The position numbers and the translations under genes were made by a program. DNA of 50,875 nucleotides, the filler included, from Streblomastix strix (taxonomy: Eukaryota), in assembly GCA_008636045.1 (NCBI GenBank). It is 3 parts of 3 records of this genome, joined end to end, with 100 filler letters (N's around TTAATTAATTAA, not from the genome) between each part and the next. Parts side by side here need not be neighbours in the genome. Positions count along the whole stretch, not along the records: positions 17,003 to 33,890 come from SNRW01000752.1; 2 more parts are not named here. One strand, given 5' to 3'. Below the pieces are notes generated by a model. The model was not told the DNA's origin. It saw only the letters and a list, made by a program, of their open reading frames with translations, and made no database searches. Position 1 is the stretch's first letter, and every line of letters starts with the position of its first letter. This document shows, piece by piece, positions 25,801 through 32,922 of the stretch.

Positions 25801-28800
25801 TCAAAACGCAGCAGCTTCATCTAAGTCATCTTATTCATCCTCCTCTTCTTCATCATCACCAGACATTCCAGTAGTTTTTGTATAATACATTCCGAACAAT
25901 TTGTCCTATTCCTTGAAATGTTTATCAAACAGCTTCTCAAATAAAATGAGTGATCCAAAAACTGTTGAATCATCATTCTCAGAGAAGTTTTCAGATATAA
26001 TAGTCATTCTCTGTTGAATTGCAATATGCTCTCTAATATGTCTCTCTTTCCAATCTCCACCATAATTAGATTCAGTCATCATCTTATCTTCTAATTGATA
26101 CTCTGATCTCAGAAGTTGGAGCATCTCATAACAAAGAGCATGAACCTCTCCACGCGAAGAGAAATTCTGCACAGCTTCTGTGATCAAACCCTGAAGTTCA
26201 ATAATCTTCTTATTTCCAACATCTATCTGTGGGACATGAGTTCGGATCTCATCATCCATTGATTAATCTAATTGAGAACTTTCTGGAATAAGAGCACGAA
26301 GGCGCTGTGTGGTGCTGCATATTGTACCCAACATCATATAAAGTACAATAACAGAGTACAGGAAAATAGCAACAAAAATGGCAAGTTGTAATATCATCGC
26401 TATCAAACATATCATTGCAAATCTTTTCTTTGCATCCTACATCGAAGTCAAGAATGAATTCGTATATTTGTCATATTGAGCTGCTAAATCCCACCTGGCA
26501 GCAGTTTATATAAAAGCTAAATTTTCATCATCAAGAGACATGTTATGCAAATCATTGTTCTTGATTGATGTTGTTAAAAACATCAACTTCCTCTGAAATC
26601 TCGCACTGAGTAAATCAAAGCCAACATACATATTAACTCCTTATATTCTATCTGGAACACACTATTATTCATCAAGTGGACATTAATAATCACCATCTGT
26701 GAACATTATTCGTCTCACTTCTACATCTGCTTCTATTGTTGGAATGTCTAATTTATAATCATCAATCCATCCAGTCTTTTGATCTGTTCCTTTGTATAAT
26801 GTTTCCTGCACTAATTTTTCATAATCAAATGAAGATGCAACAAGTTTTTGAAGTTATTCAACATCTGTTCCTAAGTATGAAAAATTCTTAGCAAAAGGAC
26901 TGGATGTTGTTTTTTCATTCAACTTAGTTTCATCCAAATCTGGCCATGCCATCTCACCTTTATTTGCTATCATCTAAAGTGTAAATAAAACAACCTGCAT
27001 AAATTGTTACTCCTCGAATCCTGCTAACATTACAGAAGAAGATCGATTGTCAATATCTCTCAAATAGATAAGGAGTATTATAGCTGGAAGAATTGAAGCA
27101 ACAAAGAATAAGAATGATACAGCCAATATGTGGATAATGTGAGTTTTATTCATTGCTCCAGGTAGTTACTTAAATGCAGATTATGTCTTCTAAATGGCTG
27201 TATCCATCTCTTCTTCCCATTGTGTATCCACAACAATATTGCGGACTATTCCTCTCATTCGATCGTCATTCTCTTCTTCATCATCTGTTTATATGTTCTG
27301 CTTCAATGCCAACATTCTCGTTGAAAAAGCTCCAAATTTCTATAAGTCGTCCATTTAATCTTTTTCTTTGCCATCAACATTTGTTTCTTGTACTTTCAAA
27401 GGTGAAACTGATTTTGGAGGAAGTTTTTTAATATTTTTATTGTTATCCTCTTCTTCATCAGAAGTTTATCCTGGTATTTCTATTTGATCAATATTATTAA
27501 GCGAGTCTGATTTTTCTTAAATAGCTACATTTGAATCACTGTCATTATTAAACTATTATCCTCCCATTTATTGTAAACTTGAATTATCATTATCATTTTA
27601 TTTCTCATTCTAATCATCTGTACGCTAATCAGTTACTTATGTTGGTGATTGTTTAATATTTTATTCTTGTGTCTCATATAATTATATGCCATCATTAAGA
27701 CCTGGAAAGTGAAATGTGAATTGAGTTGATTTTTGAATTTCGGATACATCAACATCTGATGCATGCAATATCTCTCCTACTTATTCAATATTAAGTTTCT
27801 AATCTCCAAAATTAAAATCAAGAAGCGATCTCTAATTAATATTTTCATTACTACTTCCATATTTTTACCTCTCTGATAAATTTACAGATTCAGGATTCAA
27901 ATATTTATTATCCATTTATTCTGGAGTTAATGATGTCATTGTTGAATTATTACCAGCAAATGACATTTCTCCATTTGCATCTAATTACATTACTCCTTAT
28001 CCTGCATTGTTTTACTTTTATCTCGGTTATTTGGCTGAATTTTAGTTACTTTTAGAAGTAATATCACCCAATAACATTTATTAATCCTTTCTTGGCGTTA
28101 TTTTATAGTTTCTGTTAGATTCACTTCCTTAACTCTAGAATTCATTCCAATCCCAATCTTTTACTCTCATAGATTCATTATCATTATCTCCTTTCTTCAA
28201 ATCAGACAGTTATTATTCTTATTATCCCCAATCATTCCCATCTCCATTCCCATTATCTTCTTCTCTCTCTAATAATAACTACTTCATTAATTATTCTTAT
28301 CTCTCTTATTCATCCCATAATTCTGACTTCTTAGATTTAGAAGACACGCTCTGTCTCTCAGATTCAGGTTACTATGTATCATATCCATCTACAAATATAT
28401 TCCCTCCATTGATTCTGTCTTATTCCATCTGCTTCTCAATCTGCCTGTTATTCTCTCTTTCTTATTCAATCTCTTTCTCTCTCATATGAATCTTCTCCAT
28501 ATCTTTCTCTCTCTCACGAACTTACTCTTCTTCTCTTCTTCTTTCTTCTTACATCTCTTATTACAGCTGTTGTTATCTGGCTTATTCTGCATATTCATCA
28601 ACTAATTCAAATTATCCATTTCTTATTATTTCTTACCCATTTGAGTTTGTATCAATCCAATGTCTTTATAAAGATGGATCTTGTGCAATGGGGAATGGAA
28701 GATTCTATGTAACTAATAAGGCTCTGAGTGTTGGAGGCATTGAAGACTCACCAACATTCATCAGTATTGGAGGATGAATCTTGAATATGGTGCTTGTAAG

Positions 28801-31800: not shown

Positions 31801-32922
31801 AGATAGAGCATCAAAACACAAGCCCACCAAATGTTTTTAATTCTGTGATAATAGGGAAGTTGAAAAGTCAATTCAAGAATTATTGCAATAGTTGGAATCA
31901 TTGTGAGCATGGAACGCCATCCACGATCAGTTATAGTGGTTCGCATTACTGCAATTTGCATTGAAATATAAACAGCGAATATCAATGCATCAATTTCACT
32001 GTTGAAGTGAGAGTTCAATCCTCCGTGTTTAGGAAGATTCTTGAATATAAATAAACGATAAATAAATTATTCAACTGCAATAAGAACTGAGATGATTATT
32101 CCGATGATCAAAAATGCAAGTCGAAGAGCGCTTCTGATAAATAATAAATAATAAATAATAAACAATAATAAAATGTGTAATATGTATACAAACTTGCATT
32201 GAATATTATTGTTGACAATTAAAACAGATGTTTCTCCGCCAGTACATGAAAATGATGAAAGAAGAATAGACATTAAAGGAATATGCCTTGATGGAATGAA
32301 ATAAATGAAAAATATGAAAAATAAAATATTTCGAGTAGTTATCATACAATATTGAAATGTAAAATCTGAATAAACTTCTATATAAATCGATGATCCATGG
32401 TGATGTGGTAATGATTTTCTGATAATTAATAAAAAAATAAAAACAAAAATAAAAGTATATTATAAAAGTTAAATCAAACTTTATATGTGAAAGATATGGC
32501 AACGAATGACAATGTTGCTAAGATGAATATAAATATTGAAGCCAAATTGAAGATTAAAAAGCCTAATTTAGTAATTGATGCAAGATAGCTTCCTTCTACA
32601 AAACCAGCAATCTTAATAGAATAAAGAAAATATATACAATTTAGTAATAAAGAATTCATACTTTGCTGACAAGAGTTGTACCATTCAAATTTACTCCAAA
32701 AAATGCAATTCCCAGAAATTAAAGTGATTATATTGCCCAATATAGAATAGAAAGCTTCTTCCCAAATTCAATATTCTGAACAAAAAAGAGTAAATAAAAA
32801 TATATAAACAATTAAAGTAAATTCAATTAATTTACCTGGTCATAGAGTGGATATAAGAAGAAGAATAACACCATATCAACTTTATTTGGCTTGTCCGACA
32901 AAGTTTCAGTGTCTTACTTCAT
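25801..32922 (-). CDS. TmcB/TmcC-like multi-pass membrane protein (~2,250 aa) with a TPR-like region and a C-terminal hemerythrin-like domain
   Basis: ATG 32922 (MKQDTETLSDKPNKVDMVLFFFLYPLY), then an N-terminal hydrophobic helix bundle over about five short exons. The TmcB-type helical repeats read ADICYRFALSLYPDS..LYSLFL..RFLVY and VKEFWQNIL..ARRQYEELLITHPNNPQVLRWYGAL. Further TM segments lie at ~30300-30390, ~29640-29720, ~27070-27140 and ~26330-26420. The ~5.9-kb last exon ends with MDDEIRTHVPQID..RHIREH..KHFKEQD, an acidic tail and TGA 25801-25803. Confidence 0.85.

Follow-up and report, generated by a model that had tools for sequence, protein, structure and literature searches.

What does a hemerythrin-fold domain do at the predicted cytoplasmic end of a large membrane receptor when half of its metal site is missing? 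The question is raised by a gene of Streblomastix strix (GenBank assembly GCA_008636045.1) that lies in record SNRW01000752.1, one of three joined parts of a 50,875-nucleotide stretch of DNA, hereafter the window. Its product joins, in one protein, the membrane scaffold of the TmcB family and a C-terminal hemerythrin-fold domain. The reading that we tentatively prefer is that this domain would hold a single divalent metal (most likely Fe2+, with Mn, Zn or Ni possible) and serve as the cytoplasmic metal or redox input of the receptor. An initial annotation of the locus had proposed a heme-independent sensor of O2, redox state or metal; a non-heme metal sensor is still the best reading of the protein, whereas an O2 sensor of the DcrH type fits poorly, with both His of the second iron gone and the pocket changed.

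The hemerythrin fold, an N-terminal loop followed by an up-down bundle of four helices, is present in an AlphaFold model of the last 477 residues, built from a 56-row alignment that included two prokaryote-type hemerythrins; its mean predicted local distance difference test (pLDDT) is 92, rising to 96-98 in the hemerythrin bundle. Of 48,161 chains compared with this model, the three that ranked highest were the DcrH hemerythrin (2AVK; Z 16.1, root mean square deviation 1.8 A over 131 residues), a bacteriohemerythrin (Z 14.5) and an invertebrate hemerythrin (Z 13.2), and Foldseek gave a target TM-score of 0.85 to DcrH-Hr with a probability of 1.00, the best E-value being 0.015 and none reaching 0.001. 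An alignment-free fold of the domain gave a poor model (pLDDT 56) with no useful Foldseek match, and an Atlas search with the hemerythrin part of a Monocercomonoides exilis relative returned no usable match. Among profiles, TIGR02481 matches the C-terminal domain over positions 3-125 of 126 (E 5.1e-9; 36.2 bits, below its cut-off of 51.75) and NF033749 reaches 35.7 bits against a cut-off of 84; Pfam Hemerythrin (PF01814) gave no match to the domain at E<=1, and a single-sequence phmmer search against PDB sequences found nothing. A profile from 19 family members, prokaryote-type hits excluded, reached Methylococcus-type bacteriohemerythrin in the PDB at E 1.4e-12. The hemerythrin-like domain seen in the initial annotation is borne out by the TIGR02481 match and the similarity to DcrH-Hr.

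In hemerythrins, three His bind the first iron (Fe1) and two bind the second (Fe2), a Glu and an Asp bridge the pair, and it is Fe2 to which O2 attaches end-on (PMC9388753, PMC2556348). In the register given by 4XPW, the pattern of the window protein is N-ExxxE-HxxxH-HxxxxD, that is, five of the seven ligands of H-HxxxE-HxxxH-HxxxxD. The domain shares its fold and these five ligands with Methylococcus-type bacteriohemerythrin (4XPX, 4XPW) and invertebrate hemerythrin (1HMD), but it has neither the two His of the O2-binding iron nor a Trp-Leu ahead of the last His, and it is fused rather than soluble. DcrH of Desulfovibrio vulgaris, a methyl-accepting chemotaxis protein (2AVK, 2AWC, 3WAQ), is likewise a receptor in the membrane that has a sensor region outside and, in the cytoplasm, a C-terminal hemerythrin of the same fold, whose Fe1 ligands and bridging carboxylates are kept in the window protein. 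Unlike DcrH, the window protein has neither Fe2 His, no HAMP or MCP domain, and a eukaryotic TmcB scaffold of about 12 transmembrane (TM) helices; identity between the two hemerythrin domains is 14%. FBXL5 is a hemerythrin-like iron sensor in the same class as BRUTUS, HRZ and BTSL. The latter three are eukaryotic regulators that use a hemerythrin-like metal site as iron or redox input, and BTSL, with one subdomain of incomplete motif, is the nearest precedent that we found (PMC12022348). All of these differ from the window protein in being soluble E3 ligases with an H-HxxxE-H-HxxxE diiron motif, whereas the window domain is of the O2-binding class found in bacteria and retains exactly one half-site.

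The same half of the site is kept almost throughout the family. An exhaustive HMMER search with the C-terminal module recovered 71 proteins at E<=0.001, and 62 domains were tabulated: six from four prokaryote-type proteins and 56 others, the window's own included, from 55 proteins (13 matches, fragments or with a split domain, were left out). All seven ligands are present in 6/6 prokaryote-type domains. Among the 56, the five retained ligands are conserved as given in Table 1, with gaps in the H2215 column in 4 domains and in the D2220 column in 6; 31 long proteins aligned independently with MAFFT, the source of all counts out of 31 given here, have the corresponding E, H, H, H and D in 31, 31, 31, 31 and 30 cases. 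H2175, H2179, H2215 and D2220 rank first in conservation among all columns of the domain: their entropy is zero, where the median is 2.8 bits. The first Fe2 position is held by His in 16 of the 56, Arg in 35, Asn in 4 and Lys in 1, and the second by His in 5 and otherwise by Val, Gln, Thr, Glu (5/56) and others; the site is fully intact in 5/56. Because this one-sided ligand conservation persists at 15-40% overall identity, it argues for a one-metal site that has been kept, and most relatives likely hold a single metal ion. Arg at the first Fe2 position would place a positive charge where Fe2 formerly lay.

In the small and related sample of named domains, the site is intact in 2/3 from Paratrimastix pyriformis and in 1/20 from oxymonads, with both His absent in 14/20 of the latter; the Trp before the last His has also been lost as the Fe2 His were lost. 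A 42-row tree built without the hemerythrin columns requires at least four changes at each Fe2 position, a count in which loss and regain are not distinguishable, one group inside the Arg clade having His again.

Turning to the scaffold, Kyte-Doolittle hydropathy alone gives 8+2+2 candidate TM segments, or about 12 predicted membrane helices, in the order eight TMs, TPR_TmcB repeats, TM9, a domain of about 200 residues, TM10, linker, TM11, a 220-residue domain, TM12 and the C-terminal domain. The repeats match TPR_TmcB (PF25474) with 73.7 bits (E 1.6e-20) on protein P0001 and 81.7 bits (E 5.5e-23) on the region, where the Pfam gathering cut-off is 27; they hold conserved columns in the family alignment, and the predicted helical domain of the cytoplasm of which they are the core begins at about residue 420. 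The N-terminal TM bundle, TmcB repeats and two TM pairs with long loops described earlier are thereby recovered, and Pfam and NCBIfam scans of the last-exon protein agree with the earlier account in giving no family match to PAS, cyclase or kinase. A PAS-bearing TmcB protein of Chlamydomonas incerta has the same 8+2+2 layout by hydropathy and the second outside domain, and it matches the family profile at E 1.2e-17; the window protein differs from this and other TmcB/TmcC proteins in having no PAS or cyclase and in continuing past the last TM, the end point of the Chlamydomonas protein, into a hemerythrin. In Dictyostelium, tmcB has been tied to cAMP signalling in macrocyst formation (PMC12750705, PMC8516963) and is slowly induced in hypoxia (PMC12750705).

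Both regions predicted to lie outside the cell carry conserved residues: W858, E859, N919 and K929 in the first; in the second, for which model pLDDT is mostly above 85, G1925, R1972 and D2025 (each in 31/31 aligned proteins), a conserved Cys pair (C1961, C1968) and three N-glycosylation sequons. The loop between TM10 and TM11 ranges from 165 to 1317 residues in relatives. A topology with the bundle domains outside and the TPR repeats, linker and tail in the cytoplasm would fit the Cys pair, the sequons and the basic residues clustered after TM10. The Pro-ended helices after TM10 and TM12 resemble the cyclase transducer element (CTE), which has a conserved Leu-Pro (PMC13466520), and the Chlamydomonas TmcB protein without hemerythrin also has a Pro-ended helix after its last TM. 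The arrangement of TM, four-helix bundle and TM recalls the bacterial chemoreceptor bundles of Vc1313, McpN, PilJ and NarQ (Z 9.8-11.8), but identities of 5-12% and such scores are insufficient for homology, and the window protein has two predicted domains of this kind per chain. For the second outside domain, the values with the chemoreceptor ligand-binding domains of Vc1313, McpN and PilJ (Z 11.5-11.8) are too low to rule out that only a common arrangement of helices is shared, and an Atlas match to PilJ (0.85 on 19% of members) is a lead only. A profile comparison did not establish a duplication of the two TM-bundle-TM halves, giving 61% probability over 43 columns that cover the first TM only.

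This architecture depends on the gene model. Under genetic code table 6, a single frame at 25801-31872 runs uninterrupted for 2023 codons, and six GT-AG introns of 50-68 nt (79-89% AT) link it to the ATG at 32922; the spliced gene has 123 in-frame TAA/TAG and a single TGA, the stop at 25801-25803. Exons 1-6 encode TM helices, while the 5.9 kb last exon takes in the TPR repeats together with the last four TMs and the hemerythrin-like domain, and the TGA that the initial annotation had asked to be sought between the membrane region and this domain does not occur. Because three M. exilis proteins align in order with the spliced model, from residue 4 to about 2230, the exon structure is supported; two other sets of splice junctions were rejected for internal stops. 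Run X1 yields one contig over 25500-31715 with 0 differences and flat depth, and this contig and the M. exilis collinearity together reject both a chimeric assembly and a read-through that joins two genes; as X1 is possibly the source of the window's DNA, its contig excludes a mis-join within that data set and is not independent support. By their records, X1 and a second run, X2, are termite gut metagenomes. That TAA/TAG are read as Gln is indicated chiefly by the open 2023-codon frame; the residue-alignment check is weak, Gln being the commonest residue opposite TAA/TAG at 14% of 218 cells (20% of 194 opposite CAA/CAG). This reassignment is known in Streblomastix and in one unidentified oxymonad lineage (PMC13002328). 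In the tree, the nearest named relative of the window protein is another S. strix protein (97/93 support), and the protein belongs to an anaerobic gut protist lineage, the setting that the annotation had assumed.

Table 1. Coordinates in the window of the receptor gene, its predicted domains and its metal-site residues (aa, amino acids).
Feature	Position	Strand	Details	Basis
Whole gene	25801..32922	minus	7 exons, 2253 aa	spliced ATG-to-TGA frame; M. exilis collinearity
Exons 1-7	32922-32836, 32775-32662, 32611-32480, 32418-32348, 32286-32194, 32133-31775, 31706-25801	minus		
N-terminal bundle, about 8 predicted TM helices	31594..32754	minus	aa 37-323, exons 2-7	hydropathy; blastp to P0005/P0006/P0007, 32-38% identity
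TPR_TmcB repeats	30613..30969	minus	aa 532-650	PF25474
TM9, first predicted outside domain (about 200 aa), TM10	29626..30408	minus	aa 719-979	hydropathy
Short helix after TM10	29587..29625	minus	ends V-P-K (P991)	P in 28/31 aligned proteins
Low-complexity linker, predicted cytoplasmic	27270..29550	minus	about 760 aa, Q/E/N/S-rich	composition
TM11, second predicted outside domain, TM12	26308..27147	minus	aa 1806-2085	four-helix bundle in model
Helix after TM12	26284..26307	minus	ends L-I-P (P2093), about 10 residues ahead of hemerythrin loop	P in 28/31
Hemerythrin-fold domain with half site	25885..26256	minus		TIGR02481; DcrH-Hr structure match; Foldseek
N2117, at first Fe2 His position	26212..26214	minus	codon AAT	4xpw register
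E2154, at second Fe2 His position	26101..26103	minus	codon GAG	4xpw register
E2158, bridging Glu, kept	26089..26091	minus		55/56 domains
H2175 and H2179 (HxxxH), Fe1 ligands, kept	26026..26040	minus		each 56/56 domains
H2215 and D2220 (HxxxxD), Fe1 ligand and bridging Asp, kept	25903..25920	minus		52/52 and 50/50 covering domains
Acidic C-terminal tail	25804..25869	minus		sequence

The union of TmcB scaffold and hemerythrin is not unique to this protein and, as judged from sequence matches, is an expanded family across Preaxostyla. Thirty of the 71 proteins were looked up, and 22 come from named Preaxostyla: 3 from S. strix, 7 from M. exilis, 9 from Blattamonas nauphoetae and 3 from P. pyriformis. 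Word-indexed protein searches gave nothing from single queries and two proteins from a profile, and tblastn against plasmids found nothing. A Pfam scan of 50 matches detected TPR_TmcB in 32, and Hemerythrin at E<=0.001 in only 5 of those 32; members are annotated as hypothetical because the Pfam hemerythrin model misses most of the family. Seven M. exilis proteins (P0005-P0007, P0012, P0016, P0017 and P0030) match TPR_TmcB at E 6e-15 or better, far above the cut-off, and so conflict with the statement in PMC8516963, which has M. exilis in its Table 1, that the tmcB family is absent from the sampled metamonads except Carpediemonas. The supplement of PMC9746703 gives six unique peptides for the intact relative PaPyr4115 in the P. 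pyriformis proteome, without peptide positions, and the supplement of PMC10703272 places PAPYR_4115 and PAPYR_2375 in an orthogroup that includes a Trimastix sequence.

Two members have unusual layouts. P0043 (P. pyriformis, KAJ4460679.1) has a Ser/Thr kinase domain behind its intact hemerythrin and, if its gene model is right, is a candidate O2-regulated receptor kinase. P0015 (B. nauphoetae, KAK2960695.1; 3353 residues) comprises two complete receptor units, with an H/Q-type and an R/V-type hemerythrin, and may be two fused gene models.

A full-text literature search, with subscription journals largely outside its coverage, found no paper with both TmcB and hemerythrin and, among the papers listed, none on natural one-metal or half-site hemerythrins. 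Hemerythrin is mentioned once within the enlarged oxygen-stress gene set of M. exilis (PMC6759080), and the main text of the Preaxostyla genomics paper contains no such term. No published description of the architecture came to light, and the initial annotation, too, had known of no characterisation of it. Databases do already hold some members under a hemerythrin name, three Blattamonas records being auto-named 'putative hemerythrin'.

How might such a receptor work? The two outside domains would bind a small-molecule ligand, and the signal would travel via TM10, TM12 and the short Pro-ended helices. Metal loading, loss or oxidation would alter the N-terminal loop of the hemerythrin domain, which is joined directly to the TM12 helix, and so bias the receptor; this coupling step is suggested by analogy with DcrH, proposed to signal by a redox-dependent change of its N-terminal loop (PMC9388753). 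With no enzyme domain present, the output would consist of contacts that other proteins make with the TPR repeats and the long linker. An ancestral form would have had a full diiron site, possibly O2-sensing, that persists in a few Paratrimastix and Blattamonas paralogues, and Arg would fill the second metal site in most relatives. Since O2 binds Fe2 and both Fe2 His are gone, classical O2 sensing is unlikely for the window protein; it is plausible in the few intact paralogues.

Several points weigh against a one-metal input. Metal binding, redox change, topology and partner are all read from sequence and one predicted model, and the invariant His, Glu and Asp would be just as compatible with a metal of purely structural function. 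A Trp is typical of the N-terminal loop in intact domains (3/39 His-less domains have it, against 12/16 others) but is Met in the window protein, which may therefore not share the loop mechanism of DcrH. With Asn (not Arg) and Glu at the Fe2 positions, the window protein departs from its own subfamily and could rebuild a second metal site. The structure matches of the outside domains (Z <13) may reflect a common helical arrangement alone. Finally, the family was found with a query that holds the residues counted, and 29 of the counted proteins had served as seeds of the domain profile.

In a rather unlikely alternative, a structural metal would hold the bundle together and the domain would be the output of the receptor, a docking surface for a downstream partner in the place that a cyclase takes in other TmcB proteins. 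Its position directly after TM12 and a CTE-like helix would suit this role, as would a conserved R-Q-R motif of helix C (positions 2183-2185) gained in the His-less domains, where Arg, Gln and Arg occur in 32, 37 and 37 of 40, and missing from the intact ones. The kinase that follows the hemerythrin in P0043 suggests, moreover, that the module can couple to enzymes. The intact paralogues, however, indicate that the domain arrived as a cofactor module, and a C-terminal output is dispensable for the scaffold, given that the Chlamydomonas TmcB protein stops after this helix with no further domain.

Returning to the preferred one-metal reading, it must also be set against a rebuilt diiron centre, as implied by the initial annotation, with Asn2117 and Glu2154 as ligands and O2 or redox sensing like that of DcrH; we consider this improbable. 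The closest solved structure is indeed the O2-sensor domain DcrH-Hr, variant ligand sets exist, such as H-HxxxE-HxE-HxxxxD in P1B-5 ATPases (PMC9388753), and both the intact sites and the Glu at the second position noted above are each found in 5/56 domains. The replacements are, however, not conserved, the nearest relatives having Arg together with Gln, Glu, Tyr or Val. In a contig of run X2 (depth 2.2), moreover, the codon at 2117 encodes neither His nor Asn. A second, diverged X2 contig (39 differences over 212 nt) bears on the one-metal reading instead, which it favours, as none of the 11 changed codons among its listed differences falls at H2175, H2179, H2215 or D2220; the X2 contigs are of low depth, with 21/61 differences not listed. 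The pocket residues are also bulkier. At the L114 equivalent, 32/38 His-less domains have Phe or Tyr, against 3/15 with at least one His, and at the I118/I119 equivalent 34/37 have Phe, against 3/14, counts that shared kinship makes non-independent. We take L114 and I119 to line the O2 pocket, on the basis of PDB mutant titles and a remark in PMC9388753 on a His added near the site.

More improbable still is a catalytic role, in which a membrane-anchored mononuclear iron, controlled by the outside domains, would consume NO, O2 or peroxide. Three His and two carboxylates could leave the former oxo-bridge position free, and the enlarged oxygen-stress repertoire of M. exilis includes hemerythrin (PMC6759080). 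The Pfam and NCBIfam scans of the protein, though, brought up neither a reductase nor an electron-transfer partner, the pocket looks closed by Phe, and dozens of large, divergent membrane paralogues suit receptors more than scavengers. The least probable account is a metal-free relic, a mere helical bundle, which would agree with scores below curated cut-offs, the lack of a Pfam match and the loss of 2/7 ligands, but drift would not keep three buried His and two carboxylates as the most invariant positions of the domain.

Elsewhere, the window holds an intron-containing ABC transporter gene (40409-46429, minus) with two ABC_tran and two ABC_membrane matches, likely of the ABCC type, a Kelch-repeat protein by Pfam (39192-40343, minus) and a calpain-family protease gene (2158-7167, plus; Peptidase_C2, E 7.6e-23) whose Met-Gly-Cys-Cys start suggests lipid modification. 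A 3178-codon open frame (7584-17120, minus) is of very low complexity (rich in N, Q and S) and has no Pfam match. Broken pieces of a Polinton-like mobile element occupy 47860-50382 (minus), with a DUF5906 match at 48045-48638 (E 7.7e-5, below cut-off); the open reading frame at 49459-50382, which has no Pfam match, resembles by eye, through a motif, part of a family B DNA polymerase. At 16903-17002 and 33891-33990, N runs of 44 bases occur in pairs with the same short spacer between them.

Little is known of how oxymonads sense their surroundings, and the present family, with members in two relatives that can be cultured, offers a concrete candidate class of receptors. On one scaffold it presents a natural series of hemerythrin sites, with both Fe2 His, with one and with none, and the strict one-sided conservation of the ligands is odd and directly testable: the 135-residue soluble domain can be directly expressed, which would make a cheap test of a one-metal hemerythrin and of what it senses. 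In its widest form, which we regard as doubtful as a whole, the proposal is that in Preaxostyla a bacterial O2-sensing hemerythrin was fused to a TmcB receptor and expanded, its diiron site repeatedly turning into a one-metal site, often with Arg replacing the second iron; the result would be a natural mononuclear sensor for free metal or for NO and redox state, and may represent a major sensory system of these mitochondrion-less eukaryotes.

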